A DNA stretch of 64,000 nucleotides from Campylobacterota bacterium (GCA_030152305.1 JASKOM010000001.1:329174-393173); one strand, 5' to 3'; shown: positions 1,080 through 60,852, numbered from the stretch's first letter. Notes: generated by a model not told the origin, from the letters alone. Made by a program: numbers and translations.

Positions 1080-1083
1080 TTTA

Positions 1084-1449
1084 TTAAACCTCGTATTTAA
1101 CATCAATTATATTATTATTTTTATCAACTAAAACAACTGTTGGCTGATAATTTATTAATTCGTGTTCAGAAAAAGAAGCATATGCGACAATGATAATTAC
1201 ATCACCGATATGAACTTTTCGGGCTGCTGCACCATTTAAACAGATATCTCGTTTGCCTCGTTCGCCACGAATAGCATAAGTCGAGAATCGTTCGCCATTA
1301 TTAACATTTAATATTTCAACTTTTTGACCAACTCTTAATTTAGCTTTTTCTAAAAGTTCATCATCAATCGTAATCGATCCAACATAATTTAAATTAGCAT
1401 CAGTAACAGTGGCTCGATGAATTTTGCTATATAACATATCAATATTCAT
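1084..1449 (-). CDS. panD: aspartate 1-decarboxylase
   Basis: 121 aa. Contains SKIHRATVT and the self-processing Gly-Ser site in NYVGSITID. Size and pattern are typical of PanD. Confidence 0.9.
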
Positions 1450-1453
1450 AAAT

Positions 1454-1831
1454 TTATAGCCTGCCCATTTGTCTCAACATATCAGCTGGTTGAATAGCTT
1501 TATCCCAAAAAGTATCTTTAATTAAAAGCTCTTCAACAGGTTTACCACCGATAATATGTTCATTAACAATTTTATCAATAGCGATTTTATCAACAGCGAC
1601 ATACATAAAATGCCCAGGTTCAACTAACATGACTGGACCAAGATTACATCGTCCAAGACAACTAGTTTGAATTGGTTGAACGGTTGCAATTATTCCTTTT
1701 TGCATTAGTGTTTGAGCCAAATATTGAAAATGATCTCTAGTGTCAGCTCTTACACAGCTAGGTTTTGGCATTCCTGGAGGGCTTGACTGTTGGCACTTAA
1801 ACATGTAAAAGGCTGGTTGTGGTTGTCCCAT
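1454..1831 (-). CDS. thioredoxin-like (2Fe-2S) ferredoxin domain protein
   Basis: 125 aa with four spaced Cys. The [17 protein letters not shown] segment is typical of the (2Fe-2S) ferredoxin / NuoE-like fold. Confidence 0.6.
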
Positions 1832-1990
1832 AAACTCTCCTCATATTTGGCTTAACTTTTTATTTAAGCTTTTAAAAGAATTCTACCAAAGTTTAATATT
1901 AAATATTTCTTTATTTTATAAAAAAGAGAAAAAAGCTTTATCAAAACACGGAATGACGAATTTGCCCGTTTTGTGTGAAGTTATGTTTTG

Positions 1991-2683
1991 TTAATCTTGA
2001 TATTCGTAGTTTACGATCATGTTTGATAATTTGATTAAATCTGTTGTTTTGAATTGAGAAATTATCATTTCAGCGAAGATTTGAAGTTTTGCAATTCGAT
2101 CTAATTCTAATTTTTCGAAATAATCTCGAGTTAATTCGTTTGCTTGAATATGTCTTTCTTCGCGAATATCTTTTGCCTTTTGTTGAGTAACTCGTAAATT
2201 TATAAAATTTGCAATTTACCCATAAATAATATCCGCTTTTGTTTTCGTATTTGCTGGAACAACATATTTTTTTATTGCACTTGTGAGAGGCAAATAATCT
2301 TTTTTTGTCTTATTTCGAATTTCATTCCAAGCAACACCGTCATTAACAAGTTCTAATATTTTTTTCGAAATCCAAATTGAGAACTTAGGATCAAGCCATT
2401 CTGTATATTTAATCGCTAAATCTCGATGAATCCAAGTTCCTGTTAAACTTTTATCATCACCACCTCGTTTTACATCAATTAAGCCAATTTCTTTTAATAA
2501 CTTTTGTAGTTTATTGTCTTCAGATTTTGTCAAGGCTTCTAAATTTATGCCCAGCGATTTGGATTTATTGTGAGATATTACTTCAGAAAATAAATTTAAA
2601 TCTAATTTATTCCCAACTGGGTCAGCAACCCATTTGGTGATTATCACCGATTTATCGATATTTTCTTCATTAGCCCATTGCAT
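1991..2683 (-). pseudogene. KilA-N domain protein gene interrupted by an in-frame TAA
   Basis: ORF 2216..2683 carries the KilA-N core (GTWIHRDLAIKYTEWLDPKFSIWISKKILEL) and ends at TAA (2218-2216). The same frame stays open for 74 more codons to TAA at 1993-1991 (IANFINLRVTQQKAKDIREERHIQANELTRDYFEKLELDRIAKLQ...). That continuation resembles the usual C-terminal region of KilA-N/antirepressor-type proteins. Confidence 0.6.
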
Positions 2684-20066: not shown

Positions 20067-20432
<366 letters not shown>

Positions 20433-20439
20433 TCAAATT

Positions 20440-21660
20440 CTATCGAAAGTTTTTCGAGAATTCTGGATAAGCTTCAACACCAGCTTCATGTTGATCAAGA
20501 CCGTCATATTCGACCTCATCGCTAACTCTAATACCAACAGTAATTTTTAAAATATACCAGACGATAAAAGATGTTACGAAAACGAATAAACCAACTAAAA
20601 CAATACCTTTTAATTGAGCAACAATCGTAACAGAAGGATTAAATATCGCAACTGCAATTGTTCCCCAAATGCCATTTACTAAATGAACAGATAAAGCACC
20701 AACTGGATCATCAATTTTTAATTTATCAAATAATGGAACAGCTAAATAAATTAAAATAGCGGCAACAACACCTTCGATAGTTGCAGCAATCATTCCATTT
20801 GTTGGATCGGCTGTAACAGCAACCAAACCGCCTAAAGCACCATTAAGAACCATTGTTAAATCTACTTTTGCTGTTCGAACATATGTGATTATCATCATTG
20901 CAACAGCACCAGCTGCCGCTGCCATATTTGTTGAAGCAACAACTAAACCGATTGCATCGATGTCAGCTTTTGAACCCATTGCCAATTGACTTCCACCGTT
21001 GAAACCAAACCAGCCGACCCATAAAATAAAAGTTCCAAGAGTTGCTAATGGAAGATTTGAACCTTGAATAGCTCTAATATTTCCATTTTTGCCATATTTA
21101 CCGTTTCTTGCTCCAAGTAATAAAACACCTGCAAGTGCGGCCCAGCCACCAACTGAATGAACAAGAGTTGAACCAGCGAAATCTTTAAATCCTTCGAGAA
21201 TTCCACCTGCTGAAGTTAAAGAAGTTCCCCATATCCAATGTCCTTGAATTGGATAAATAATTCCTGCAAGAATTAAAGTAAAAAACAAAAACGGAATTAA
21301 TTTCATTCGTTCAGCAACAGCTCCAGAAACAACAGAAGCAGAAGTTGCAACAAAAACAACTTGAAAAAAGAAATCAGCATAAACAGAGTGATTTGCATTT
21401 GTAATATCACTCATCATAAAACCTGAACCGATAAAAGCATTTCCTGTGCCATACATTAAGTTATAGCCTAAGAAATAATAAACAACAACAGATATAGCAT
21501 AAATTGCTATATTTTTTAATAACACAACAGAGTTATTTTTTGTTCTTGTTAAACCAGCTTCCAACATTGCAAAACCAGCCGCCATCCACATAACGAGAGC
21601 GGCCATCATGATAAGCAGAAAACTGTCTAAAATATATTTGACATCGGCGAAATTTTCCAT
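20440..21660 (-). CDS. amt: ammonium transporter
   Basis: 406 aa polytopic protein. Has FAGSTLVHSVGGWAAL and the ALSVHLVNGIWGT twin-His signature. AAGGAGG RBS. Confidence 0.9.
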   Translation of the reverse strand: MENFADVKYILDSFLLIMMAALVMWMAAGFAMLEAGLTRTKNNSVVLLKNIAIYAISVVVYYFLGYNLMYGTGNAFIGSGFMMSDITNANHSVYADFFFQVVFVATSASVVSGAVAERMKLIPFLFFTLILAGIIYPIQGHWIWGTSLTSAGGILEGFKDFAGSTLVHSVGGWAALAGVLLLGARNGKYGKNGNIRAIQGSNLPLATLGTFILWVGWFGFNGGSQLAMGSKADIDAIGLVVASTNMAAAAGAVAMMIITYVRTAKVDLTMVLNGALGGLVAVTADPTNGMIAATIEGVVAAILIYLAVPLFDKLKIDDPVGALSVHLVNGIWGTIAVAIFNPSVTIVAQLKGIVLVGLFVFVTSFIVWYILKITVGIRVSDEVEYDGLDQHEAGVEAYPEFSKNFR

Positions 21661-21791
21661 AAAGCCTCCTTGAGATTCTTAATCGAATTTTAATTTTAAA
21701 TTAATAAAAAATAGCTTAATCGATAAAATCGAGTTTGTTAATATTAAGTTAATAAGTTTTTAAGTTTAATTTAAATTAATTTTGAGAAAAC

Positions 21792-21825
21792 TTATTTGCT
21801 AATTCAAAACAGCTTTCTAATGTTT
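21792..21825. repeat. 34-bp direct repeat, copy 1 (orphan copy of the hemD 3' end)
   Basis: ttatttgctaattcaaaacagctttctaatgttt is identical to 27404-27437. On the minus strand it reads TLESCFELANK followed by FSQN-stop. Confidence 0.9.
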
Positions 21826-21838
21826 TTTAGAAATAAAA

Positions 21839-24800
21839 TTAATAATTTTTAATAAATTCAAATTTACATAAAGTTTGTAGCCAATTACCTTCTGGACTAT
21901 TTGGATATTTAGAATCTTCTTTTATAAAATAATATATTTGAGCATCAATTTCTATCTCTGAAATATAATATGCATTATTTAATAATTTGTTTATTTCTAT
22001 TTCGAATTTACCAGATAAATATGCTATTAGTTTGTTGTTATATAATAAAGAATTCCCAACAAGTTGTAATTTAGAACCTGCAAAAATCTTATTGTTTATA
22101 ATTGTAGTTTGGAATTTATGACTATGTCCTAAGTTAATACTGTTTAATCCCATATATAAAATCTTTTTCTTTGGTTCTGGACAACTTGATTGATGAGGTG
22201 AGACAAAATCATATTTCAAATTTATAAATAAAGAATCTTCAAAATTTGAAATAATTGTTAAACCTTTTTTAGCTCGAGTCATGGCTACATAATATTTTCT
22301 TCTGATTGAATCTGTATTATATTCGTTTGGTTTGATGATTGAAGCTTTGTGTTCCATTACAACTACATAATCAAATTCCCTACCTTTTGATTTATGAATT
22401 GTTGTGATAATTATTTTATGATTATTATGATTTTTATCAAAAAAATTATCATCAAGTTCATTAACAAAATTATTAAATAAGCTATAACTATATTCATTGT
22501 CAATAATAATATTTTCAAATTCTTCAATAACTTGTTTTAATTTATCAATATTTTTTGAATTTTCAAACATTTGAAAAATAGAATCTTTAGCTTTAATAAA
22601 TGTTTCTTTTGTAACTATTTGTTCATTATGTAAAATTTCCATAAATGTGTATATTTCGAGTAAATTACTCCATTCAAATCGTGGTCTATCTTGAATTAAA
22701 TGAGATTTTATTTGATGATTTGTTAAAAGAGATTGCATTGTTAAAGCTTCATCATTTGTGTTTGTTAATATAGCTATTGTTGATTCTGTATGATTTGAAA
22801 TAATTGATGAAACTTCTTGACGAACATCTGCATATAAATAAGAACATTCATCTGAAGGACTAAAAATTAATTTTGTAAAAGATTCGATTTTAGATATTTT
22901 ATCTTTTGAAACTTTTGCAGGAACTTTTAATTTTTCTGATTTTTTTCTTGTTGTAATAAAAGAAGCAAATTTATTAGCAAATTCAATTATTTTTTTAGAA
23001 CTTCTGTAATTTTCAATTAGTTCATAATTTATTTTATGTTTATTATCGTTAAGATTAAAATCTTGCCAAAAATCATCAAAAAATTTAACATTGGCTCCAG
23101 CAAAATCTAATATTAGCTGATCATCATCACCAACTGCTACAATTTTTTTAATATTTTGATATTTAACAAGATTATAAATTAAATCAAAAGCATCTTGAGA
23201 AATATCTTGAAATTCATCAAGATATAAAGCTGTGATCGGTTTTATATGTTCTTGATATTGTTGAAATTTTTGATTGAAATTTTTCAAATACAGATTTTGA
23301 ATATTTGACTCATTTTTTAATTCTTCGCCAGTTATTTTGCCAACAAAACTATGAAATGTATGAATGTCAAGATTATATGCAATTTGTCCGCCAAGCATTT
23401 TTACAAGTCGGCTTTTAAATTCATTAACTGCTGTTCTTGTGTAAGTTAACATTAAGAAATTTTCTGGTTTAACTGAAGGATCATTTTTAATAGTATGTGC
23501 TATTTTTTGAACAAGTGTATGAGTTTTTCCACTTCCAGGACCAGCTAAAACTAAAATAGAATTATCTTTACTTGTCATAATTCGTCGTTGTTCATCACTT
23601 AAATCTTTACCAAATTGACTATCTTTTGTTTGAAAATTAACAAATAATTCTTTTAAATAACTAAAATATTTATCAATAAATTCTGAAATATCCATTTTAA
23701 AATATTCAGACAATAAATTTTCTTGTTTATTAATGCTATTTTTTTCTAACATGGTTTGAAGATATTCATTCATGATATGAGTTCTTTTTCTTCGATATTC
23801 ATAATATTCATGTTTTTCTGATAAATAATCTTTTTTTAAATATTCACGATTGACTTGATTTTGTATTTCAATTTGAAATTTTTGTTTTATTGGTGAGATA
23901 ACATCAAGTAATTTAATAGCTCCAACATCTTGAAGAAGTAACAAAAAATATTCTATTGACAAATCATTAATTAAATCGAATTTGCTTTTTAAAAAAATAA
24001 TATCAATATATTTTTTATCTTTAATTTCTTCAAAAATCTCTTTGGCTATTTTGATTTTTATATGAATTCGTTCTTTAAATTCATTAAAATTTGTTGCTTC
24101 AAAAGTCCAAACAGAATATTGTTTATTTTTTCGTTTAATCGTTATAGAATTATTTTTATGAGTTTCAATCCAATCTAATAAAATAGCTTCTAAAATATTA
24201 AGAAACTTTCTTTTATCTTTAAGTTCATTAGAACTATTTACAAAATCTTTTAATCTTAATTCGCTATTTTTTTCAGCATAATTTAAAAGTTTTTCTTCTA
24301 TGTCAAAATAATATGAATGAAATTCAAGTAATTCAATTCGTGTGGTATTAAAACCAGAAATTAAATTTAACTCATATAATTTTATAAAAGCTTGATTAAT
24401 ATCATTGATTGCAAAATCAAGTGAATCATACATATTTTCTGGTTTGCCATTTTGGAGATATTTAATAACAGCAATTGCGATTTTGTCATTACCAAGAACA
24501 TCTTTTGATTCAGAGATAGTAGCCGTTGAAAAAGATTCTCCAATTGATTTAACAAGATTTGTATTTCGTTTGATTAATTTAACTCTTTCGAGTTCAGACA
24601 AAATTGTGTTAATTTTTAATTCTTGAATTTCAAATTTCTTTTGTGTTTGTATTTCCCATTTTGCCTCTTTGAGAATTTCTCTAGTTGAAGCAATAACTTG
24701 ATTATTATAAGCCAATAATTTTATAGCTTTATAAATTTGCTCAATTTCTTCAAAAGTATCAATTGATTTTTTTAATCTTGATAAATTAAAATCTAAGTCA

Positions 24801-26764
24801 TCATATTTATAAAAAGTAATTGATTGTGAAAGTTGACCGTCCCTCCCAGCTCGTCCAGATTCTTGTAAAAAATCTTCTATATTGCTTGACGGTTTATAAT
24901 GAATAACTGTTCTAATATTGGGCTTATCAATTCCCATTCCAAAAGCTGAAGTTGAAACAATCACATCAATATTATTAGCTATAAATTCACTTGAAATAGT
25001 TTCTCTGTTTTTAACTTTTGAATGAAAAGGTTTAATAATAAGATCTGTAAAATCTTTTTGAAGTTCTTTTGATATTTCGTTACATGCTGAAATACTATTT
25101 GTTATATAAATTACTGCTGGAAGATTTTTTTTATCTTTTAAAATTTCAATAGCTTTTGAATATCTTTCTTGATCGTTTTTTACATCGATAACAGAATAAT
25201 TTATATTACTTCGTTTATTTATTGCCAAATATTCATCAAAATTAGCTAAATCTTTAAAAAAATTTCTCAAATCATTTAAAATATATTTAGTTGCAGTTGC
25301 TGTAAAACAAGAAATCGGTGGTTTATAATCTAAATATTCTTTAAAGAATGTTGAGATATATCTATAATCTGGACGAAAATCTTTACCCCAAGTTGAAATA
25401 ATATGAGCTTCATCTAAAACAATTCTCGAAATATATCTTTCGTCTAATATATTTCTAATAGTTTTATATCTTAACGATTCAGGAGCTATATATAAAAGAT
25501 CGATTTTACCGTCATTAACATCTTGAATAACTTTATTTTTTTCTATTGAAGTTAAATAGCTACTTAACGATCCTGCTTTAATATTTATAAATTTTTTATT
25601 AAAACTATCGACTTGATCTTTCATTAATGCTCTAAGAGGAGAAATAATAATAGTTAAACCTTTAAAAGTTTCAGCATCATAAATTGCTGGTATTTGATAA
25701 CAAATACTTTTTCCTCCGCCAGTTGGTAAAACCGCTAAAACATCTTTTTGCTCAATACAAGCTTGAATAATATTTAATTGTGAAATATTACTTTTTCCAA
25801 TTTCTAAATTTTGAAATTCTTTAAAATTAAATTTTTGATCTGACAAATGATCTCGTGCAAAATTTAAAATATTTATTTGTTTATTAAACATAGTTTTTAT
25901 TTTTGGAAAATTCTTGAAAGTATAATTTGCTGGTCTATAATTAAAATATCTTGAAAATAAAAGTAACATTATTTCAATTGGAATTTCTTCAATTTGTGAT
26001 TCTTGAATTTCTGGAATATATTTATTAATTGTTGTTAATGCAATTTGATGATATAAATCATATTGTGTTAATCCAATATATTCTATAAAAGTTTGATAAT
26101 ATGGGCTATTATGTGCAAGATACGAAAAACTTTTTTTTATGTCTATTGGTAATTCTCTAAAAATTTCTAACTCATCTTGAAATAAATAAAAACTTTCTTC
26201 AGAATCTTTAATAGGATCGTTTTTATCGTTCTCACTATTTTTATAATATTTTTCTAACTTATGATTTTGTAAATCTCTTAAAATAATTGAAAGGTAAAGA
26301 GTATCTATATATTTTTGATTTTTAGCGAAATTACATTGTTCTTCTAATATTATTTTGTCATAATTTATAATATTATGTCCTGCTAAAATATTTGCATTTA
26401 AATAATTTTGAAATTCATTAAAAGATAATGAAATATTGCTTGGAAAAACACCTATTTTTCTTTCGTCAATATCAATAAATAATAAATTCGTTTCAAAGTA
26501 AATTAAATTTTTAATAAATTTATTAAGTTCTAATTCTGACTCTAATCCAAACATTTCACAATTTAAGCAATCAATAATTAACTCATTATTTATTAAAAAT
26601 TCTACATTCCAATCTTTTTCAAACTGAAAATATTTATTTTGTTTTAAAACCTCTAATTCAAAGAAATTTATATTTAATTTTATCTTCATCAACCACCAAA
26701 CTTTTCTCGATATTTCGATATTATAATAAAAAATAGGAAGTTTGATTATGTTTGAATCGATCAC
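21839..26764 (-). CDS. giant fusion protein: DEDD-like 3'-5' exonuclease domain + RecQ-family helicase core + UvrD/PcrA-family helicase core + unassigned C-terminal domain
   Basis: 1641 aa.
- Exonuclease-like: FIDIDE (aa 96-101), GHNIINYD (129-136).
- RecQ: LPTGGGKS (346-353), DEAH (451-454), FTATAT, SGRAGRDG (636-643).
- UvrD: AGPGSGKT (1074-1081), DEFQD (1183-1187), GDDDQ (1212-1216), NYRS (1252-1255), TIHKSKGREFD (1455-1465), YVAMTRAK (1492-1499).
The start is uncertain (Met1 at 26764 or Met26 at 26689). Confidence 0.8.
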   Translation of the reverse strand: MIDSNIIKLPIFYYNIEISRKVWWLMKIKLNINFFELEVLKQNKYFQFEKDWNVEFLINNELIIDCLNCEMFGLESELELNKFIKNLIYFETNLLFIDIDERKIGVFPSNISLSFNEFQNYLNANILAGHNIINYDKIILEEQCNFAKNQKYIDTLYLSIILRDLQNHKLEKYYKNSENDKNDPIKDSEESFYLFQDELEIFRELPIDIKKSFSYLAHNSPYYQTFIEYIGLTQYDLYHQIALTTINKYIPEIQESQIEEIPIEIMLLLFSRYFNYRPANYTFKNFPKIKTMFNKQINILNFARDHLSDQKFNFKEFQNLEIGKSNISQLNIIQACIEQKDVLAVLPTGGGKSICYQIPAIYDAETFKGLTIIISPLRALMKDQVDSFNKKFINIKAGSLSSYLTSIEKNKVIQDVNDGKIDLLYIAPESLRYKTIRNILDERYISRIVLDEAHIISTWGKDFRPDYRYISTFFKEYLDYKPPISCFTATATKYILNDLRNFFKDLANFDEYLAINKRSNINYSVIDVKNDQERYSKAIEILKDKKNLPAVIYITNSISACNEISKELQKDFTDLIIKPFHSKVKNRETISSEFIANNIDVIVSTSAFGMGIDKPNIRTVIHYKPSSNIEDFLQESGRAGRDGQLSQSITFYKYDDLDFNLSRLKKSIDTFEEIEQIYKAIKLLAYNNQVIASTREILKEAKWEIQTQKKFEIQELKINTILSELERVKLIKRNTNLVKSIGESFSTATISESKDVLGNDKIAIAVIKYLQNGKPENMYDSLDFAINDINQAFIKLYELNLISGFNTTRIELLEFHSYYFDIEEKLLNYAEKNSELRLKDFVNSSNELKDKRKFLNILEAILLDWIETHKNNSITIKRKNKQYSVWTFEATNFNEFKERIHIKIKIAKEIFEEIKDKKYIDIIFLKSKFDLINDLSIEYFLLLLQDVGAIKLLDVISPIKQKFQIEIQNQVNREYLKKDYLSEKHEYYEYRRKRTHIMNEYLQTMLEKNSINKQENLLSEYFKMDISEFIDKYFSYLKELFVNFQTKDSQFGKDLSDEQRRIMTSKDNSILVLAGPGSGKTHTLVQKIAHTIKNDPSVKPENFLMLTYTRTAVNEFKSRLVKMLGGQIAYNLDIHTFHSFVGKITGEELKNESNIQNLYLKNFNQKFQQYQEHIKPITALYLDEFQDISQDAFDLIYNLVKYQNIKKIVAVGDDDQLILDFAGANVKFFDDFWQDFNLNDNKHKINYELIENYRSSKKIIEFANKFASFITTRKKSEKLKVPAKVSKDKISKIESFTKLIFSPSDECSYLYADVRQEVSSIISNHTESTIAILTNTNDEALTMQSLLTNHQIKSHLIQDRPRFEWSNLLEIYTFMEILHNEQIVTKETFIKAKDSIFQMFENSKNIDKLKQVIEEFENIIIDNEYSYSLFNNFVNELDDNFFDKNHNNHKIIITTIHKSKGREFDYVVVMEHKASIIKPNEYNTDSIRRKYYVAMTRAKKGLTIISNFEDSLFINLKYDFVSPHQSSCPEPKKKILYMGLNSINLGHSHKFQTTIINNKIFAGSKLQLVGNSLLYNNKLIAYLSGKFEIEINKLLNNAYYISEIEIDAQIYYFIKEDSKYPNSPEGNWLQTLCKFEFIKNY

Positions 26765-27389
26765 ATTAATATTTATTATATTTTTATCTTTTACTTTATA
26801 TAAAAAAATAAAAGAGTTAAATCAAGTTAAAGAACTATCATTAAAATTACATAAGTCTTTCAATTTCAATAATGAGCTTTTAAGATTAAATGTTGATTTA
26901 AAAGAATTGGAGCAAAATTTGAAAAATAAACATGAAGAAAAAAATTATTTAATATCACAAATTGAACAAGAGCAAATTATTACTGAAAATTTACAAACAA
27001 AACTTAATGAAGAAAATTTAATTAATGCTTCTTTGCAACTTGAAATTCAAAAATTACAAGAACAAAATTCTAAGTTTTTCAATGAATTAACTCAAAATCA
27101 ACAAACATTTTTGTTAAACAGAACCGCAAATTCTCAAGTTTATCAATTACAAAAAGAGAACAATAAACTTAAACAAGAAAATTTATTTTTGATAAATAAT
27201 AGTAATCAAATATTACTTGATAAAAATAACGAATTATCTTTAAAAATCAATGAATTGAATATAAAAATAGAAGAATTAGAAAACGACTTGAAAAAATATA
27301 AAGAACAAAGAAACATAAACATATCGAATAAACTTGATATTCTTGATGTTGAGCAAGACGAAGATGAATATGAAAATTCAGAAGAATAA
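26742..27389 (+). CDS. membrane-anchored coiled-coil protein, hypothetical
   Basis: 215 aa. N-terminal TM helix (ITLIFIIFLSFTLY), a long Q/N/E/L/K heptad-like region and an acidic tail (DVEQDEDEYENSEE). The likely start is ATG 26748 (AGGAAG 26735-26740). It is divergent from the helicase gene and overlaps that gene's longest ORF. Confidence 0.6.
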   Translation: MIMFESITLIFIIFLSFTLYKKIKELNQVKELSLKLHKSFNFNNELLRLNVDLKELEQNLKNKHEEKNYLISQIEQEQIITENLQTKLNEENLINASLQLEIQKLQEQNSKFFNELTQNQQTFLLNRTANSQVYQLQKENNKLKQENLFLINNSNQILLDKNNELSLKINELNIKIEELENDLKKYKEQRNINISNKLDILDVEQDEDEYENSEE

Positions 27390-27393
27390 AAAC

Positions 27394-28062
27394 TTAATTT
27401 ATTTTATTTGCTAATTCAAAACAGCTTTCTAATGTTTGTTCTTGAGAAATATATTTATTATATTTTTCTGGAATTGCTTTAAAAGTCGTTTTGCCAATCG
27501 TTATAAAAATAAAATTATTTGAAATTTCGATTTGATTTATTTGCAAATATTTTAAAAAACAGTTAAAAATTGAAGGTGATGAAATTATAAAAATATGCTT
27601 TTGATTTATTAAAAAGTTTATTTTTGTGTGAGATAAATTGCAAACTGTTTTATATAAAATTAATTCGATGAGGTCAATATTTGCTTTTTTTAATATTTCA
27701 CCAATATTCGATTCTACTTTTTCAGGTCGAACATAAAGCATTTTGATATTTTTAAAATTTTTTAAAATTTCATTTGCAAAATTATCACCGTGAGAATCGA
27801 CGGCTTCAAATATTAATTTTCCACCTAATTTTTTTATTGTTTCTCCCGTTTTTTTGCCAATTGCAACAGAATCTATTTTTTGCCAATCCATCCAAAAATT
27901 ATTTAAATAATTAACAGCTTTTGCAGAAGTAAAAATAATTAAATTTATATTTTCGTTTTGAATTTGAGAAATTTTTTGTGATAGATTTTCGATAAGAACC
28001 GTCTGAATCATCGGAATATTAACAACTCCTTTGATTTCAGTCGGTGATAAATTATATATCAA
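27394..28062 (-). CDS. hemD: uroporphyrinogen-III synthase
   Basis: 222 aa with a TTG start. The HEM4-like layout (IIFTSAKAVNYL...AIGKKTGETIKKLGG...LILYKT...IGKTT) was recognised by pattern only. Confidence 0.55.
   Translation of the reverse strand: MIYNLSPTEIKGVVNIPMIQTVLIENLSQKISQIQNENINLIIFTSAKAVNYLNNFWMDWQKIDSVAIGKKTGETIKKLGGKLIFEAVDSHGDNFANEILKNFKNIKMLYVRPEKVESNIGEILKKANIDLIELILYKTVCNLSHTKINFLINQKHIFIISSPSIFNCFLKYLQINQIEISNNFIFITIGKTTFKAIPEKYNKYISQEQTLESCFELANKIN
27404..27437. repeat. 34-bp direct repeat, copy 2 (functional 3' end of hemD)
   Basis: Identical to 21792-21825. It encodes TLESCFELANK followed by IN-stop of the intact hemD ORF. Confidence 0.9.
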
Positions 28063-28073
28063 ATTAATAATTT

Positions 28074-28868
28074 TTATATTTTTTTTGTAAAAAACTTGTC
28101 TATTACGATAAATTTGCTACCGTCTTGAGTATTTCTGACTTTAACATATTTATCTTTATAACGATCTCGTAATTTTTTTATTGCTAATTTAACCGCAACA
28201 TCATCGAGAATTTTTGTTTCGAAAGTTCCGTTTTTTTCAACTTCTAAAAAAACTTCATTTTCAAGATATCGTTCAATTTGCTCATTCTGTTTTTTTATAA
28301 ATTCACCTATTTCAAGCTGAAGTTTCAAATTATATTTTGACGATAACCAATCAGATAAAATGTATAACATAGCTTTATATCGATAACCTTCTCTACCAAT
28401 TAATAACGGAACATCTTTACCATCTAATAAAATAAAAATCGTTTCGCTATTTAATAACGAAATCGCGATCATATCTATTTCAAAACATGTCTTTTTTAAT
28501 AAATTAGTTAAAGTTGTTCGCACCTCATCGACGATTTCATTATCATTTCGTTTAACAGGTTCAACATATTCATCATTTTTAACTAAACCTATTTTTTTAG
28601 AAAATTGTTTAATAATTCCAGATGGTTTTTCGAGGATCGAATTAACTAAACTTTCCTCTTTTTCTTTGATGATAATTTGTTGATTTTGTGCTTGAGCAAT
28701 TGAAATTTTAATAGAAGCAATAATAATTGCAGGTTTTTTACCTACTCCAAAAATGCCACTAAGTGGTTCTTGCAAAACAAAATAATCTACTTGATCATGA
28801 GAACAACCAAGTCGTTCAGAAGCTTCACGAATGGCTGTTTCTAGATCAATAGCTTCTATTTGTAACAT
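28074..28868 (-). CDS. jag: Jag-family RNA-binding protein (Jag_N + KH-like)
   Basis: 264 aa immediately downstream of yidC. N-terminal MLQIEAIDLETAIREASERLGCSHDQVDYFVLQEP is typical of Jag_N. Confidence 0.65.
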   Translation of the reverse strand: MLQIEAIDLETAIREASERLGCSHDQVDYFVLQEPLSGIFGVGKKPAIIIASIKISIAQAQNQQIIIKEKEESLVNSILEKPSGIIKQFSKKIGLVKNDEYVEPVKRNDNEIVDEVRTTLTNLLKKTCFEIDMIAISLLNSETIFILLDGKDVPLLIGREGYRYKAMLYILSDWLSSKYNLKLQLEIGEFIKKQNEQIERYLENEVFLEVEKNGTFETKILDDVAVKLAIKKLRDRYKDKYVKVRNTQDGSKFIVIDKFFTKKI

Positions 28869-28874
28869 TATTTT

Positions 28875-30461
28875 TTATCTCTTATTTTTAGCAAAATGTT
28901 TATTGACAAAATATTGTTGAGAAATCGAAAATAGATTATTAACAAACCAATAAAGAGTCAAACCTGCTGGAAATGTTATAAAGAAAAATGTAAAAATAAG
29001 TGGTAAAAACTTAAATATTTTTTCTTGCATTGGATCAGTAAAATTTGTTGGAGTTATATATTGTTGCCAAAACATCGTTCCACCCATAAGAATTGGAAGA
29101 ATAAAATATGGATCCATTTTTGCTAAATCTTCAATCCAGAATATCCAGCCTTCACCTTGAAGTTCAACGGCATTTAATAAAACTCGATAAATTGCAAAGA
29201 AAATTGGAATCTGTAATAAAATTGGCAAACAACCACCCATAGGATTCGCACCATTTTTCGAATAAAGTTCCATCATTTTTACTTGAAGTTGTTGCGGATT
29301 ATCTTTATATTTTCGTTGGATTTCTTTCATATCTGGAGCTAAATCTTTTAATTTTTGCATTGAAACCATACCTTTGTGAGTCAAAGGATATAAAACAAAT
29401 CTAATTAAAATTGTTAAAACAACGATAGCCCAACCCCAGTTTCCAAATAACGAATGAAGCCAATTTAGAACTAAAAATATAGGTTTTGCAATCATCGTAA
29501 TTAAGCCGTATTCAATTGCAGAAGTTAAATCTTCATTTAATGTTTTTAAAACTTTGTGATCTTTTGGACCAATATAACCACTAAATTTAAGATTATCTAA
29601 ACCTTCTAAATAAATAGTTGGGTTTTTATTTGAATCAGCTTCGACAATTGCATTTATATTTTTATCGATGTTATAAAACATAGAAGCATAATATCTATCA
29701 AATGATGAAACAAAAGTTAAATTTCTAAAAATTGAGCTACCTACAACATCGCCGTCTTCAAAAATTGTGCTTTCTTCGGCAACTCGAATCATTCCACCTT
29801 GAACAACAAAACCGTATTCACTTGCTTCTGGTCTCATTCCATTCGATACAAAAAATCGTTTTGGTTTAGAAACAGAAATTTCAATATCATAATTGCCAAT
29901 TGGATAAAAAGTTAATTTTTTTGTTACGACGATTCCGTCAGATAAATTTTGAGTTAAAATTAATTCTTCTTTTGATGAGTTTGAGATATTTATCTCATTT
30001 CGATTTGTGTTATACGAAGTTGAAAAAGCCTCTGAATTAAGTTTTGCATCTTCGAATCTAATTTCTAACGGTTTTGGTGAACCAGCGGAAACAGAAACTA
30101 ATTGAGCTTGAATTCCTGAACTATTTTTATGTTTTTCATCTAATAATATTTTTGATGAGATTCGACCAAACTTATCGATTGTCATCGAAGCATCAGATCC
30201 ATATTTAATCGAAACAAGAGCTTCTTCTTGTTTAGTTTGAGTTGTTGGTGATGAGGTCATTGCTGACGAAACAGTCGGAGCAGAATTAATATTCTCTTGT
30301 GTTTTATTTTCAGAACTATTTTGAATATTTAAATTGGAGCTATTTTGTTCTAAAGTTTTAATATTTTTAGGTGGAAAAACAGCTGAATAGCCAATAAAAA
30401 ATAAAATAGATATAGCAGTCGCAAGGAGTAATCGCTGTTGAGCAGACATTTTTTCTAACAT
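28875..30461 (-). CDS. yidC: membrane protein insertase YidC
   Basis: 528 aa. N-terminal TM, a large periplasmic domain, and the conserved C-terminal core (GWAIVVLTILIRFVLYPL...GGCLPILLQIPIFFAIY...LYWFVNNLFSI). Confidence 0.92.
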   Translation of the reverse strand: MLEKMSAQQRLLLATAISILFFIGYSAVFPPKNIKTLEQNSSNLNIQNSSENKTQENINSAPTVSSAMTSSPTTQTKQEEALVSIKYGSDASMTIDKFGRISSKILLDEKHKNSSGIQAQLVSVSAGSPKPLEIRFEDAKLNSEAFSTSYNTNRNEINISNSSKEELILTQNLSDGIVVTKKLTFYPIGNYDIEISVSKPKRFFVSNGMRPEASEYGFVVQGGMIRVAEESTIFEDGDVVGSSIFRNLTFVSSFDRYYASMFYNIDKNINAIVEADSNKNPTIYLEGLDNLKFSGYIGPKDHKVLKTLNEDLTSAIEYGLITMIAKPIFLVLNWLHSLFGNWGWAIVVLTILIRFVLYPLTHKGMVSMQKLKDLAPDMKEIQRKYKDNPQQLQVKMMELYSKNGANPMGGCLPILLQIPIFFAIYRVLLNAVELQGEGWIFWIEDLAKMDPYFILPILMGGTMFWQQYITPTNFTDPMQEKIFKFLPLIFTFFFITFPAGLTLYWFVNNLFSISQQYFVNKHFAKNKR

Positions 30462-30471
30462 TGCTGTTACC

Positions 30472-30822
30472 TTATAAATTTTGAAGATATATATTTTTTG
30501 AAAAATTTTTTATAATAAAGTATTTATTTTTTTCTCCTATTAATGGAACAAGCCAAAATATTATTTTTTTAGGCTTTTGAGAAAAATTTAAATTAACTTT
30601 ATAAATAATAGGGTGATCGATTCCACCCTGAAAAAGTTGATTACAACTTAAGATTCGTTTAAAAGAATAAAAAGAAGCTTTAAAAAAGCTGTTTCCACGA
30701 TATTGAAGTTTTGCATATTCGGAACAAGTCGGATAATAACGACAACTTCCATAGCTAAAATGAGTTAAAAATTTTTGATAAAAAGATATCAAGTTAGATA
30801 AAAGAGTATTGCCAAACATCAC
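30472..30822 (-). CDS. yidD: membrane protein insertion efficiency factor YidD
   Basis: Contains YQKFLTHFSYGSCRYYPTCSEYA, the YidD signature. Positioned between rnpA and yidC. Confidence 0.8.
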   Translation of the reverse strand: MMFGNTLLSNLISFYQKFLTHFSYGSCRYYPTCSEYAKLQYRGNSFFKASFYSFKRILSCNQLFQGGIDHPIIYKVNLNFSQKPKKIIFWLVPLIGEKNKYFIIKNFSKNIYLQNL

Positions 30823-30919
30823 TTTTTATATGCCAATATTATTAATAATTATTATATTGTTTTTGAGCTGACATACATTTTTTCCTTTTATTATTTATTA
30901 ATCAAGTAGAGCATATCAG

Positions 30920-31258
30920 CTACTTTTGGAAAGCCTTTAAATATTTTATTCCAAATTTAAAATCAGTGATAAGCTGATCAAATTCGATATCGTGAATAGC
31001 TTCTTTTGCAACAAGAATATAAGCACCGCTTTCAAGTTTATTACAAAATTGTAATAAAACAGCTTTCAGAAGTCTTTTACTACGATTACGATGAACAGCA
31101 TTGCCGACTTTTTTACTAGCGACAAAGCCGAAACTTGTTACTTCGTTTTGGAGATAAAAAAGTGCAAAGGCTTGTTTATGAAACTGCCTACCACTTTTAT
31201 AGATATGCTGAAAAATTGAGTTTTCTTTTATTCTGTTTGTATGTTTTAAACAGTTAAT
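30920..31258 (-). CDS. rnpA: ribonuclease P protein component (no canonical start codon)
   Basis: Not in the ORF track. The frame is open from 31258 to TAG 30922-30920 and encodes ...[21 protein letters not shown]...[24 protein letters not shown]..., an RnpA signature, directly after rpmH. It has no in-frame ATG/GTG/TTG. The candidate start is ATT 31258-31256, with AAGGAAG 6 nt upstream. Confidence 0.75.
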
Positions 31259-31380
31259 TTAGCTCTTCCTTTTCGTCGTCTTGCACTTAAAATAGCTCTA
31301 CCGCTTTTAGTAGCCATTCTTAATCTAAAACCATGTGTTCTCTTTCGAGGAGTGTTATGTGGTTGATATGTTCGTTTCAT
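31246..31380 (-). CDS. rpmH: 50S ribosomal protein L34
   Basis: The 44-aa [47 protein letters not shown] falls below the ORF-track length cutoff. Textbook L34 sequence. Confidence 0.92.
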
Positions 31381-31657
31381 ATAAATGTCCTTTAATATTT
31401 TACTTGCTTAAAATTTAGTTATTTATTAATTTATATAACTACTTATTTAACTATATTTTAATAAGTATTAGCCTTTTGGCTATTTTGATAATAGCCGAAA
31501 TTATATCACAAGAAATTTTTTATTAAATAATATAAATACTAGCCATATTAACAATTCTTAAATTTAGCAAATTAATTAAAATTAATAATTTATATAATAA
31601 AATAATTTTATCGTGATAAACTATCAAGAAATTTTTTAGAAAGAAGGAACTTTTCTT

Positions 31658-33016
31658 ATGCCATATGCCTATAAAAGATATGTCATGTATATTTTTGCAA
31701 CTTTAATTGCATTAACTATGCCGTTTATTACGATAGACGGTAATCACTTTTTTTTATTAAACTTTGATCAAAAGCAGTTACATTTGCTATTTACAAAGTT
31801 TGATATGCAAGAACTTTATCTTATGCCATTTTTATTAATTATGCTGTTTTTAGGCATTTTTTTAACAACGGTTATGGGTGGTCGAGTTTTTTGTGGTTGG
31901 GCTTGTCCGCAAACTATTTTTCGAGTTGTTTTTCGTGACCTCATCGAAACAAAGATTTTACGACTTCGACGATCAATAAAAAATAAACAAAAAGAACCAG
32001 ATTATTCGCTAACAATAAATAAAATTAAAAAAGCTGTTGCAATATTAATTTGGACTGTTTTAGCATTAATTGCGGCTTCAGATTTTGCTTGGTATTTTGT
32101 TCCGCCAGAAACATTTTTTGAATATTTGAAAGATCCAATGGAACATACAATATTATTTGGTTTCGTCGGAATTTTGACTCTGTTTTTAGTTTATGATGTT
32201 ATTTGGCTAAAAGAAAATTTCTGTGTTTATATTTGTCCTTATTCAAGAGTTCAATCTGTTTTATATGACAACGAAACTATTATGGCAATTTATGATAAAA
32301 CTCGAGGCGGTGAAATTTATAATAGCTCAAAAGAAAAAATAGCTAATAAACAAAAAGAGCTTCCAGCTGGTTCAGAATGCACAACCTGTGAAAGCTGTGT
32401 TACAGTTTGTCCAACTCATATTGATATTCGAAAAGGGTTACAACTTGAATGTATAAATTGTCTCGAATGTGTTGATGCTTGTACGACAGTTATGGGAAAA
32501 TTAAATAAACCGACTCTTGTTAATTGGTCAAGTGTAAAAGAAATCGATGATAAAACAGGCAAAACTCAATATTTTAGACCTAAAACAATTGGCTATATTG
32601 CAATCATGATTTTAATGCTCTTTATTTTAATCAAAATGGGTTCAGAAAAAGAACATATGCTTTTAAATATAAATAAAGAAACTCGCTTATATTCGATTGA
32701 AGAAAATAACAGAGTAACAAATAGCTATATTTTCTTGTTCCAAAATACTGACCATGTCGATCACGAATATTATTTCAAGGTTGATAACGAAAGTATAAAA
32801 ATTAAAACTCCGACTCAACCTTTTACAATTAAAGCTGGACATAGCCTGAAAAAAATTGTTGTTTTATATACTGATGAGGTTCTCGGAATTGACGATCGAA
32901 AAGATATTACGATACCAATTCACATAAATGCCTATGCAACAGATTCAGAAGAAAAAATAAAAGTTCAACGAGAAGCTATTTTCGTTTATCCTAAAACTAC
33001 TTCTACTATAAAATAA
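31658..33016 (+). CDS. ccoG: cytochrome c oxidase accessory protein CcoG (FixG-type 4Fe-4S protein)
   Basis: 452 aa. Contains CGWACPQT, a ferredoxin-type CTTCESCVTVCP and CINCLECVDAC, and TM segments. Confidence 0.8.
   Translation: MPYAYKRYVMYIFATLIALTMPFITIDGNHFFLLNFDQKQLHLLFTKFDMQELYLMPFLLIMLFLGIFLTTVMGGRVFCGWACPQTIFRVVFRDLIETKILRLRRSIKNKQKEPDYSLTINKIKKAVAILIWTVLALIAASDFAWYFVPPETFFEYLKDPMEHTILFGFVGILTLFLVYDVIWLKENFCVYICPYSRVQSVLYDNETIMAIYDKTRGGEIYNSSKEKIANKQKELPAGSECTTCESCVTVCPTHIDIRKGLQLECINCLECVDACTTVMGKLNKPTLVNWSSVKEIDDKTGKTQYFRPKTIGYIAIMILMLFILIKMGSEKEHMLLNINKETRLYSIEENNRVTNSYIFLFQNTDHVDHEYYFKVDNESIKIKTPTQPFTIKAGHSLKKIVVLYTDEVLGIDDRKDITIPIHINAYATDSEEKIKVQREAIFVYPKTTSTIK
32938..32998. 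repeat. 61-bp direct repeat, copy A (functional 3' end of ccoG)
   Basis: aacagattcagaagaaaaaataaaagttcaacgagaagctattttcgtttatcctaaaact matches 36169-36229 at 60/61 positions. Confidence 0.9.
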
Positions 33017-33025
33017 TTTTTTATA

Positions 33026-33054
33026 CTCTCCAAATTTAATTGTAATTTGGAGAG
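33026..33054. terminator. bidirectional rho-independent terminator between convergent genes
   Basis: A perfect 11-bp stem, CTCTCCAAATT (33026-33036) with AATTTGGAGAG (33044-33054), around a 7-nt loop. T-run downstream on the plus strand and A-run upstream. Confidence 0.75.
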
Positions 33055-33071
33055 TTGTAATTTTTTTGAGA

Positions 33072-35306
33072 TTAATTTGTAGGTGTATTGATTGTTTTGC
33101 TAACAAATGAATAAGTTATTTCTAATTTATCACCGCTTGTTAATTTTCTGCCAACTATAATAATTGAATTACTACTTTCTTCATATTTCCAGCCATTTGT
33201 TTCACTCATATTTATAATAGAACCGTTTAGTTTAACTGAAATAGTTGATACAACAACAGAATCTTTATCTAATTTTATGCCGATTGTGTCTCCAGAAATA
33301 CCAGAAGCGATTTTTGACATAATATCTTTAAAGTCTAAGTGACCTTTAGGATCTCTATTATTTATATTGCCAACAAAACCGCCAGTTGCATCTGCTAAAT
33401 CATCATATTGACCTGGATTGAACCAAATGTTACCATTATCATCAGTAGAAACAACAACATGAACTTTCCAATTATTTTTAACAAAAATATTATTTTTTGG
33501 ATCAAATTCAATGCCTCCAGATCGATCAGTATATTGACTTGGTTCATCACTAATTATAATAATACTCATTTGAGATTTATCATCGATGCCAAATGTTTCT
33601 CTAGCCAAACCACCAACAGACAGCGAATATTCGGAGTTATAAATTCCTGTTTCTATTCCGCTACCGCAAATACCAACAATACTTTTTTCTTTTAACAATT
33701 CAAGATCGTTAATAATACCTGAATTAATTAAAACATTATTAGCTGTATCATTAGAATAATAATAACCATAAGAACTATACCCGTTATTTGATGACAAAGA
33801 ATTATTTTTTATTCCATCACCAGTTGTGATAATTCCAGCTCTAAAACCTAGATTTGCTTTTTCGAATTCTGTTCCAAAATCAGAAATTGCTTGTTTAACA
33901 GCATCTTGATCATCACTCATACTTCCAGAATCATCAATAACAAAAAGAACATTTGCATTGAGTTTAGTTCCATTTGATTCAAAATATTGTGAATGATTTA
34001 AAATATTATATTCTTTCTGTTGGAAGTTATTACATGATGTAATCGTTTTCATTTTTCCAGCAAATTCGCTGTAAAGCGAGTTATCGACAACAGAAACAGA
34101 GGCAAATATTTTACCATTTACTTCAGTGACAACTATTCTAGCTTTAAAAAAATCAGCAAGAGTTGTTGTATTAGAATTAATCGTAATATTTGATGTTCCT
34201 AGAATAATTTTTAATATGTCATTTAAAACGATTTTTGCATCTGTTTTTTCTTGATTTAAAATAGTTATTTCCGTAGCAATCGAACTATCGCAATTATTTG
34301 ACTTTTGAGTGGAAACTTCAGAAACTTTACCATTAGAAGCATTTTTAATATCTTTACTGATACTATCAGCAATATTTTCAACTGAATCATTAGATTCTAA
34401 TTTAATAACTGCCGAAGGTAAATTTGGAGTTTCGATTACAACAAGATTGTCGTTAATTTGTTTAACAGGAATTTCTGGAGCAACAATAAAAGATACCTCA
34501 TCAGAAATAGATGTTTTAGCAATAGGTTTTTTATTAAATCCAGAATTACAAGATAATTGATACCATGACTCATTAATATCATCTCCATTTTTAGTTGACC
34601 CTATTTTTTGGGAAAATATAGTTTTATTACCTCCATTTGGACAACTTGTATTACCTACAGGTAAAGAAATATTATATTCAACAATATTTCCTAAATCACT
34701 ATTTTTTGAATAAGTTACATATGAATTACATTCTTTATTAGTCCAACGATCTATTTCAATATTATCAATTGTTTTAATATATTCTATTGATTTACCACCG
34801 TAAAAACATTGTGAATCACCTTTAGCAAGTGTTGAAACAGTTGATGAAATTACAGGAGTTAAACCTTTGTTAATTGCAATAGATTCAGCTGTGTTGCAAA
34901 TATGATTTCTATCAACAGATAAATTATGTTCTCCTGCAAATAAGCCAACACTTTTTACAGTAATTACTTTTGTTCCACCTAATTTACAAACAGGATCACC
35001 TACCGCAATAGTTTCATTAAATTCATTTGAGAATTCTTGATAATTATTTATTGTTAAATATTCAATATAACTTAAGCATTTTGTATTTTTTATTAAAGAA
35101 CCATCGACTAATGAGATATTATATTCTCCTCCGTATGAACAAATCGATGAATTAGAATCACTAATTATATAATTACCTGTTGAACAATCGACACAAGGAC
35201 AAGAATTACTTGTATAGCTATATGCTAAATCTCCATCAGCATAAGAAACAACATTATTGTAAGTTTTACAAATTGAGCCATTGGAATCTGTATATGTGCC
35301 TACCAA
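33072..35306 (-). CDS. Cys-rich repeat / von Willebrand factor A domain surface protein
   Basis: 744 aa from the first TTG. The MIDAS-like VLFVIDDSGSMSDD lies in the C-terminal half and the N-terminal half has Cys-containing repeats. There is no signal peptide or SD at the TTG. The frame is actually open up to 35495, overlapping the end of the upstream ORF. Confidence 0.6.
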   Translation of the reverse strand: MVGTYTDSNGSICKTYNNVVSYADGDLAYSYTSNSCPCVDCSTGNYIISDSNSSICSYGGEYNISLVDGSLIKNTKCLSYIEYLTINNYQEFSNEFNETIAVGDPVCKLGGTKVITVKSVGLFAGEHNLSVDRNHICNTAESIAINKGLTPVISSTVSTLAKGDSQCFYGGKSIEYIKTIDNIEIDRWTNKECNSYVTYSKNSDLGNIVEYNISLPVGNTSCPNGGNKTIFSQKIGSTKNGDDINESWYQLSCNSGFNKKPIAKTSISDEVSFIVAPEIPVKQINDNLVVIETPNLPSAVIKLESNDSVENIADSISKDIKNASNGKVSEVSTQKSNNCDSSIATEITILNQEKTDAKIVLNDILKIILGTSNITINSNTTTLADFFKARIVVTEVNGKIFASVSVVDNSLYSEFAGKMKTITSCNNFQQKEYNILNHSQYFESNGTKLNANVLFVIDDSGSMSDDQDAVKQAISDFGTEFEKANLGFRAGIITTGDGIKNNSLSSNNGYSSYGYYYSNDTANNVLINSGIINDLELLKEKSIVGICGSGIETGIYNSEYSLSVGGLARETFGIDDKSQMSIIIISDEPSQYTDRSGGIEFDPKNNIFVKNNWKVHVVVSTDDNGNIWFNPGQYDDLADATGGFVGNINNRDPKGHLDFKDIMSKIASGISGDTIGIKLDKDSVVVSTISVKLNGSIINMSETNGWKYEESSNSIIIVGRKLTSGDKLEITYSFVSKTINTPTN

Positions 35307-35470
35307 AATATTTTGTTCATTTAAACCACATAAAGTCGTATTTGTTTCACTGTCAAAAATAGAATCAATAAATTTTTTAGTTGAAGTAATTTTTCCACCA
35401 TTAATACAAACTGGGTTATTTACTAAAAGTAATTTTGTTGAATTATATTCTTCGATTGGTTCATAAATGT

Positions 35471-36073
35471 CTATTTTATAGTTGATTCGGATCCATTATT
35501 GAGCAACCAATATGCTGAACCTCGTTCAATATATGAAACAGATCTTTGATAACTTGTTTTCATTAAATTATTTAGTGAGCTTTTATTACTGTAAGCTCCC
35601 CAACTTTGTGTAGCATTATCAAAAGTCCAAATAATTTCAATATTATTTTTTGAACCAAAAGTTTTTATTAAATCAATCTTTGAGTTTCCAGCAGACAATA
35701 AATTCCAATTTTTTGCAATTTGAATTTGATTGTTTGAAGCAGATGAGTTTGATAAGTTAATTTCGATATTTGAATTTCCATTATTGTTAATCCAAAAACC
35801 ACTATTACTTTGAACATGTGAAACAGATGTTAGATTACTATCTATGATTTTTTGTTTTGAAGATGAGTTATTGCCATAAGCATTCCACTTGCCATTATAA
35901 TATGTCCAAACATATGAAATATCTTGATATTGAGAAAATGTGCTTGAAAGATCAATTGAAGAATCGCCAGAACCTAAAAGATTCCAACCTTTATAAACAG
36001 TTACCGAGCCTTGCATAACTGTAGCTATCAATAAAGGAGAAGAAACTAACAGAGCTAATTTGTTTTTGCTCAT
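35471..36073 (-). CDS. exported protein with two ~80-aa internal repeats
   Basis: Start at ATG 36073 (AGGAA 8 nt upstream) gives MSKNKLALLVSSPLLIATVMQG, a signal peptide. Repeats: YKGWNLLGSGDSSIDLSSTF...GFWINNNG and AKNWNLLSAGNSKIDLIKTF...AYWLLNNG. Confidence 0.6.
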   Translation of the reverse strand: MSKNKLALLVSSPLLIATVMQGSVTVYKGWNLLGSGDSSIDLSSTFSQYQDISYVWTYYNGKWNAYGNNSSSKQKIIDSNLTSVSHVQSNSGFWINNNGNSNIEINLSNSSASNNQIQIAKNWNLLSAGNSKIDLIKTFGSKNNIEIIWTFDNATQSWGAYSNKSSLNNLMKTSYQRSVSYIERGSAYWLLNNGSESTIK

Positions 36074-36168
36074 ATAATAATTCCTATAAAATAAATTAAA
36101 GTATAAAAACTTTGCTAAAAATCTTAACATAATTATTACTATTTATCAAGATAATATTAAAAATATTT

Positions 36169-36229
36169 AACAGATTCAGAAGAAAAAATAAAAGTTCAAC
36201 GAGAAGCTATTTTCGTTTATCCAAAAACT
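36169..36229. repeat. 61-bp direct repeat, copy B (orphan copy of the ccoG 3' end)
   Basis: 60/61 identical to 32938-32998 (mismatch 36223 a versus 32992 t). It would read ...TDSEEKIKVQREAIFVYPKT followed by GNK-stop. Confidence 0.9.
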
Positions 36230-36350
36230 GGGAATAAATAATTAATTTATCTTGAATTTTTTAAAAAAAGATGTAATAATCACAAGACAATCACTCTTTA
36301 ATAAATAAGCAATTAAAGAGTTTTAAAATATATTTTTAGGAACAAATCAC

Positions 36351-60834: not shown

Positions 60835-60852
60835 AGTTTCGTCCTTATATTG

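Follow-up and report, generated by a model that had tools for sequence, protein, structure and literature searches.

Integrase-less elements that are flanked by attachment (att) sites are known from streptococci as cis-mobilisable elements (CIMEs). Within the Campylobacterota, the cag island of Helicobacter pylori is also devoid of an integrase; its repeat corresponds to the 3′ terminus of glr/murI, a housekeeping gene, its composition is described as foreign, and the island is lost and gained through host recombination and transformation. Homology-facilitated events, by comparison, usually delete recipient DNA, and a duplication of the anchor is not usual among them. Here we describe a 5,578-bp segment at the 3′ end of hemD, the gene of uroporphyrinogen-III synthase, in a 64,000-nt stretch of the genome of a Thiovulum-like Campylobacterota bacterium (GCA_030152305.1, JASKOM010000001.1:329174-393173; referred to below as the window). 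The segment lies between two exact copies of a 34-nt repeat, termed R1, that belongs to the hemD coding sequence. Insertion of this segment into the last codons of hemD by host recombination is the explanation that we favour, with a probability of roughly 0.55.

Direct repeats of 31 bp border the cag island (PMC3266215). The hemD segment resembles it in its occurrence in the Campylobacterota, in having no integrase and in its short perfect direct repeat (31 bp in cag, 34 bp here), and differs from it in size and content (5.6 kb with two genes, as opposed to 40 kb with a secretion system), in its host-like composition, in that no empty-site strains are known, and in the presence of an unrelated repeat-bounded cassette nearby. 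With cis-mobilisable or decayed islands the segment shares repeats that duplicate the target 3′ end, a replacement tail and the lack of an internal recombinase; unlike in those elements, no cognate element or integrase was identified, and neighbouring cassettes use unrelated repeats. Homology-facilitated or Campbell-type integration after transformation, which needs no enzyme encoded by the element and relies on one-sided short homology, agrees with a same-genus donor and with a poorly conserved gene order, although the hemD segment departs from the usual outcome of such events by duplicating its anchor, and competence in Thiovulum is presumed. By analogy, the hemD structure is best read as a cag-island-like islet, one of a known kind.

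R1 (TTATTTGCTAATTCAAAACAGCTTTCTAATGTTT) occurs exactly twice in the window, with identity at 34 of 34 positions, and no additional copy was detected there even with three mismatches allowed (none expected, from 100 shuffles). The first base outside each copy differs on both sides, and the borders of the repeat are therefore sharp. The proximal copy is part of intact hemD (Table 1), in which the HEM4 domain match reaches residue 215 of 222; R1 thus belongs to the 3′-terminal part of a gene that is conserved on the chromosome and remains intact. The orphan copy is located 13 nt past the stop codon of the neighbouring helicase gene (21839) and 131 nt ahead of the start of the ammonium transporter gene amt (21660). 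Read in the hemD register, it gives TLESCFELANKFSQN and a stop codon, corresponding to TLESCFELANK-FSQN-stop. The motif EQTLESCF.LA is conserved in hemD of Candidatus (Ca.) Thiovulum stygium, which identifies R1 as genuine conserved hemD coding sequence. Apart from the two copies in the window, the R1 core was found in none of the 84 loci examined, the Joint Genome Institute (JGI) metagenomes or the viral contigs. An earlier note on this DNA had placed the 34-mer at these two positions and had taken the right copy as the hemD end (IN-stop) and the left copy as an orphan (FSQN-stop); the exact-copy search and the registers read in the sequence agree with it on each point, and the alternative that it raised, a dispersed repeat, is not borne out in the window or in the collections listed. 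The 8-mer TTTCTCAA (hemD sense) is present at 27443-27450, 5 nt upstream of R1 in hemD (…ISQE…), and again at 21782-21789, 2 nt downstream of the orphan copy (…FSQN-stop), with an estimated chance probability of roughly 0.03.

The segment between the R1 copies comprises two genes, encoding a fusion helicase of 1,616 amino acids (aa) and a coiled-coil ORFan of 213-215 aa. The helicase has a RecQ-family superfamily 2 core at residues ~328-690 and a UvrD-family superfamily 1 core at residues ~1052-1510 (numbering of the 1,641-aa open reading frame, ORF), with Pfam matches to DEAD, Helicase_C, UvrD-helicase and UvrD_C. It belongs to the RecQ family by its score against the NCBIfam model recQ_fam (TIGR00614; 273.5 bits, cut-off of 219.8) and lies below the cut-off of the equivalog RecQ model (300, with 640 needed). 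The N-terminal ~320 aa (25730-26689) are DnaQ-like and match the phage family phrog_192, 'DNA polymerase exonuclease subunit' (E of 7e-6), which makes the protein an exonuclease-RecQ-UvrD fusion. An exonuclease-plus-RecQ arrangement recalls the Werner-syndrome helicase. The ORFan is divergent from the helicase gene and convergent on hemD. It has no Pfam, PADLOC, NCBIfam or PHROG family, no match at E ≤ 0.001 among 1.84 billion representative proteins, and no similarity to the small genes beside the helicase homologues in Thiovulum sp. ES and on a plasmid of Aliarcobacter cibarius.

No integrase, transposase or recombinase domain was detected in either cargo gene (Pfam, PADLOC and NCBIfam) or in the ~50 larger ORFs of the window (Pfam). 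No transfer RNA (tRNA) genes were found in the window, and no terminal inverted repeat of the segment was among the repeats listed for the whole window. The gene and family scans are consistent with the earlier description of the segment as two genes without integrase, transposase or tRNA. A role for the helicase itself as mobiliser of the segment was considered and dropped, as the second cassette of the window (see below) lacks a helicase and the scans detected neither an HUH nor a nuclease-integrase domain. The idea of a riboswitch or of a concealed RNA gene was likewise dropped, as Rfam returned no match.

Table 1 Features of the hemD and ccoG structures and of the adjoining genes (window coordinates)
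Feature	Position	Strand	Description
glnK/P-II	20067..20405	-	In operon with amt
amt, ammonium transporter	20440..21660	-	First gene past orphan R1; Pfam Ammonium_transp, E 1.8e-99
amt upstream region	21661..21775	-	Probable original hemD-amt intergenic spacer
Tail beyond orphan R1	21776..21791	-	(K)FSQN and TAA stop at 21776-21778; probable original hemD end
R1, orphan (distal) copy	21792..21825	-	Reads TLESCFELANK in hemD sense; no gene body upstream; exact match
Cargo gene 1, exonuclease-RecQ-UvrD helicase	21839..26689	-	1,616 aa (gene call P0002); ORF (1,641 aa) extends to 26764
Cargo gene 2, ORFan	26742..27389	+	213-215 aa; hydrophobic N-terminal helix, long coiled coil, acidic tail
New hemD tail	27394..27403	-	Third base of K codon, then I, N and TAA stop; read from first bases of the putatively inserted segment
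hemD, uroporphyrinogen-III synthase, intact	27394..28062	-	222 aa; Pfam HEM4, E 4.6e-26
R1, proximal copy	27404..27437	-	Within intact hemD, residues about 210-220; encodes TLESCFELANK, then IN-stop
R2, proximal copy	32938..32998	+	Inside 3′ end of ccoG (31658-33016)
Second cassette	33072..36130	-	Two genes (744 and 219 aa) that match neither a Pfam nor a PHROG family
R2, orphan copy and tail	36169..36241	+	R2 at 36169-36229; in-frame GNK-stop, stop at 36239-36241; upstream of rplY-pth

Data from the same organism come from one sequencing run, SRR24719468, which is the sole sample holding the locus. Unitigs from its raw reads are 100% identical to the window, and those checked (L001, 4,379 nt; L002, 5,638 nt; L090, 5,560 nt) stop exactly 30 nt (k-1) inside the R1 copies. 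The length of L002 equals 5,578 + 30 + 30, as the window predicts, and that of L090 likewise agrees. Because unitigs built from raw reads break inside the R1 copies, the repeat is real at the level of the reads and is not a polishing artefact.

The whole-window repeat search returned one other strong direct repeat, R2, with 54 nt exact or 61 nt with one mismatch, and R1 and R2 are the only strong gene-end repeats in the window. The proximal R2 copy is at the end of ccoG, a gene identified from matches named CcoG/FixG, whose product ends in …REAIFVYPKTTSTIK-stop; the orphan copy reads …REAIFVYPKTGNK-stop. Each R2 copy is followed by a hairpin of its own, that of the orphan being a 10-bp hairpin with a U-run. 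The R1 and R2 structures are 5.5 kb apart and are of the same design, with different cargo and without a recombinase gene in either. Together, the two cassettes bracket a single 5.6-kb core block (hemD…rpmH and ccoG), with the orphan copies outermost. Loci of related genomes, 1.37 Mb in all, showed no comparable gene-end repeat.

By hand alignment, R1 and R2 match at ~61% of positions at the best offset, which was judged to be chance level, and a recombinase motif shared by both was rejected for this reason. Since the repeats are unrelated, a single site-specific recombinase acting on both is unlikely, and the combination of two unrelated repeats with no recombinase found favours host recombination over one such enzyme. 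The tails of ccoG (…KTTHK-stop in T. stygium, …KTTSTIK-stop in the intact copy and …KTGNK-stop in the orphan) are, like the flanks, ambiguous on the direction of the event. The 3′ flank of ccoG is different in every Thiovulum genome examined. In Ca. Thiovulum karukerense (JAMJTX010000002.1; L094, 8065-9107), regular repeats resembling a CRISPR array are present downstream of ccoG, with peptide strings that recur in all frames.

The affiliation of the source organism follows from comparison with Ca. Thiovulum stygium (CP091137): YidC matches at 80% over the whole protein and at 95% over the best C-terminal segment, CcoG is 87-88% identical and hemD 53%. Collinearity with T. stygium extends over rnpA-yidD-yidC-jag-hemD, plus ccoG alone, and the gene order is otherwise almost wholly different. 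The complete T. stygium genome carries jag, lytB and lon in pieces (L005, 10639-11446; L085, 5449-6272 and 18124-20684). These splits are probably frameshift errors of the assembly, so a 1,600-aa helicase orthologue in that genome could have escaped a protein search.

The tail of the orphan copy with the next ~50 nt was aligned with the T. stygium hemD tail and its downstream spacer, giving a local score of 32 (p of 0.009 by shuffling). This score falls in the top 0.2% of 522 equally AT-rich null windows, whereas the flank after the intact hemD copy scores at the null mean. The stop codons of hemD and of the convergent ORFan are 4 bp apart, without a terminator between them; the helicase stop, too, is just 13 nt away from the orphan, and so tight an arrangement appears to be recent and not yet edited. 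The perfection of the R1 repeat argues for a young event. From the flank likeness, the tight packing and the perfect repeat, all of them features of the sequence, we infer the direction and the recency of the event: they indicate that the orphan would be the old gene end and the 5.6 kb the newcomer.

In the mechanism that we propose, a Thiovulum genome would at the time have carried hemD followed by amt-glnK, and the 5,578-bp segment would have entered the last few codons of hemD. The join would have been made across ~34 nt of hemD 3′ coding sequence, either carried by the incoming DNA or copied at the junction, and in both cases the stretch would come to stand at both ends of the segment. The gene would then run through the proximal R1 and gain two codons and a stop from the insert (…ANK-IN-stop), and its former end (…ANK-FSQN-stop) would be displaced with the spacer by 5.6 kb, to remain as an orphan before amt. 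The join would probably have been the work of host recombination functions and not of an element-encoded integrase. Conceivable routes are one-sided homology, Campbell-type integration or the joining of overlapping ends where homology stops; each could have followed the uptake of DNA or have involved two copies of the chromosome. A possible donor is a related organism with its own hemD end beside the cassette. Recombination between the two R1 copies would be expected to excise the segment and to restore the FSQN allele.

Several observations weigh against this mechanism. With its 34 nt, R1 is at the lower limit of what RecA-type crossovers can use. Two cassettes around one 5.6-kb block could stem from a single larger replacement, and the unitigs, built with k=31, fit both an integrated segment and an empty site accompanied by a 5.6-kb circle. 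The likeness of the orphan flank to T. stygium is confined to a short, AT-rich sequence of low complexity, which makes the alignment evidence modest, and at ccoG both flanks are unlike that of T. stygium. The hemD of T. stygium ends in …EQTLESCFQLALSLKLKS-stop and is followed by a convergent gene for an LptF/G-family permease, with neither amt nor the helicase gene at that place; T. karukerense and T. imperiosus carry genes other than hemD after jag. Neither an empty-site allele nor a hemD-amt adjacency was found in relatives. The hemD protein gave nothing against the species-representative genomes and a self-match only in the 5.8-billion protein set, and the hemD alignment gave nothing against the JGI metagenomes, where a wobble-degenerate form of the 34-mer had 0 matches. 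Exact searches with Amt, GlnK, Jag and L25 returned only SRR24719468 or 1-kb contigs that end short of the junction. No genome or metagenome contig of the same species was found to span the junction, and neither a second copy of the cassette beside other genes nor a sign of excision was obtained. Base composition does not mark the cargo as foreign: the GC contents of the segment genes, 0.20 and 0.229, are low, yet within the host range (window gene mean of 0.291, standard deviation of 0.038; hemD 0.23), and GC at third codon positions is in range as well. The argument for an insertion from foreign composition was therefore dropped, and any donor must have been compositionally like the host; in favour of the proposed insertion, host-like composition and nearest relatives in Thiovulum point to a closely related donor or to an intragenomic source.

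The layout at hemD could also have been produced by site-specific integration of a decayed or cis-mobilisable element with the last 34 nt of hemD as its attP core, in which case the R1 copies would be attL and attR and a tyrosine or serine recombinase would be encoded elsewhere or since lost. A core that is the same on either side, a target at the 3′ terminus of a conserved gene and a replacement tail supplied by the insert are what such an integration would leave. We nevertheless regard this origin as unlikely: there is no recombinase in the segment or in the ~50 larger ORFs scanned, the equally recombinase-less ccoG cassette with its unrelated repeat of 54-61 nt would call for two different trans-acting enzymes, and neither viral contigs nor JGI metagenomes contain the repeat cores. 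Of the earlier note's proposal, the insertion into the 3′ end of hemD with a replacement tail is supported by the geometry and the orphan flank, and the attL/attR reading with an integrase is weakened by the unrelated R2 cassette; among the three options that it had offered (mobility functions acting in trans, functions since lost, or homology-facilitated recombination after DNA uptake), the pattern favours host-mediated recombination, with a lost or trans-acting integrase less likely. An exploitation of Xer/dif was dropped, as R1 and R2 differ and sit in coding sequence. A transposon or insertion sequence with target-site duplication was rejected because no transposase was found, because no terminal inverted repeat of the segment was among the repeats listed and because the duplications are long and unequal (34 and 54-61 nt).

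Somewhat less probable again is a single larger rearrangement, in which a segment of ~14.4 kb (21826-36168), consisting of the helicase cassette, the hemD…rpmH/ccoG core and the second cassette, would have come from a related chromosome or a chromosome copy and replaced the core block, or would have arisen through a replicative template switch, leaving the old 3′ stubs of hemD and ccoG in place. The symmetric order of orphan R1, cassette 1, [R1…core…R2], cassette 2 and orphan R2 speaks for it, as does the fact that the sole two such repeats in 64 kb surround one 5.6-kb block. It would also suit a genus in which gene order is scrambled down to single operons, and contigs 99% identical over amt-glnK that have another neighbour after glnK. 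Such an event would, however, require two illegitimate joints, both within the last 40-80 nt of a gene, and two independent events would by chance be adjacent in an estimated ~8% of cases, with ~25 operon ends in the window. In addition, L002 enters R1 at both ends, so the sample contains no second set of cassette ends next to different flanks; this speaks against a copy-and-paste of the duplicative kind. An assembly artefact, with a real empty hemD-amt site and a 5.6-kb circle with one 34-mer threaded into the chromosome, would be compatible with the k=31 unitigs of SRR24719468, which break at the repeat and fit either topology. It is very improbable, given that the final k-mers employed by common assemblers exceed 34 nt, as by far do the reads, so that a join across the repeat normally requires spanning reads; moreover, the segment has no replication or partition gene, and the same error would have been needed twice. 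Finally, the promoter-proximal position of the second 34-mer might suggest that it has a function, for instance as a regulator site or as a terminator before amt, or the match might be due to chance, with no recombination scar at all. This is scarcely credible, as no chance copies are expected and the 34-mer has no stable structure (z of -0.99), Rfam family or terminator-like site; it matches coding sequence in register and with sharp borders, and an equivalent structure exists at ccoG. Insertion by host recombination accordingly remains our preferred account of the hemD segment.

The helicase is one of at least thousands of proteins of the same architecture and similar length in Campylobacterota and Bacteroidota, annotated as 'RecQ family ATP-dependent DNA helicase', and related proteins in Cyanobacteria show 58-66% query coverage. 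Its nearest homologues, with 54-56% identity, are from Thiovulum-like organisms and are encoded at other loci; members from outside Thiovulum are 30-39% identical. The 54% homologue belongs to Thiovulum sp. ES, where the gene comes after truB, and the 56% homologue is encoded on a JGI contig (L003) beside KilA-N, Bro-N and PemK genes. On the same contig (4294-6448), a module of helix-turn-helix, KilA-N and Bro-N domains is present as a ~1.08-kb tandem duplication (84-93% identity), with the PemK toxin gene alongside. Full-length relatives of the helicase also occur on megaplasmids, for example adjoining parAB on pACIB of Aliarcobacter cibarius (L091, 6782-11581). The earlier assignment of the cargo to accessory DNA accords with homologues at other loci, relatives on megaplasmids and an ORFan without a homologue.

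PADLOC matches of the helicase to DpdF, PsyrT and GajB cover the RecQ core alone or the UvrD core alone. Identification as a known defence-system helicase was rejected on account of these single-core matches and of the lack of a Dpd, PsyrA or GajA partner nearby. A phage origin of the cassette was rejected too, as there is no close relative in viral contigs and phage records show matches to the RecQ core only.

The region upstream of amt contains no strong hairpin and gave no match in an Rfam search. Contigs from two other metagenomes (European Nucleotide Archive ERZ27245496 and JGI 3300025130) match amt-glnK (window 20067-20984) at 99%, the matching stretches being 1-919 of L088 and 124-800 of L089. 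In these contigs the homology ends directly after the glnK stop codon, and a convergent dapB replaces the LPG_synthase_C gene of the window. This mismatch beyond glnK could reflect a rearrangement that differs between strains, or amt-glnK may be a module that was exchanged recently. The GC content of amt-glnK, 0.36, is near the top of the window and is exceeded only in a small ORF at 1454-1831 (0.376). At the left edge of the window (762-2683), small minus-strand ORFs follow one another in a row and include a KilA-N domain protein (2216-2683, E of 3.4e-10); the run may be a phage or mobile-element remnant. Two tandem PAS-domain paralogues at 60271-61530 contain a 131-nt repeat with 84% identity (60431-60561 and 61016-61146), in which 32 consecutive nt match exactly.

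Taken alone, the hemD segment is another small genomic islet with a textbook scar, and its value lies in the context. The cargo draws attention to exonuclease-RecQ-UvrD fusion helicases of ~1,600 aa, a widespread and unstudied family that, judging from sequence comparisons, is here flagged as probable mobile cargo on chromosomes and megaplasmids. The host is a giant sulfur bacterium that has not been cultured, from a group in which gene order is hardly shared at all between genomes, and two apparently fresh scars 5.5 kb apart would give a concrete, testable way into the question of how this lineage gains or relocates genes without dedicated mobile-element enzymes. A broader and doubtful proposition is that both cassettes are scars of a general, host-driven process of gene acquisition or relocation in Thiovulum, which may proceed, for example, by the joining of overlaps where homology stops, following the uptake of DNA or involving two copies of a polyploid chromosome. 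If this were true, and if such scars were common across the genome, they would record the mechanism through which gene order has been lost to so extreme a degree between Thiovulum species.

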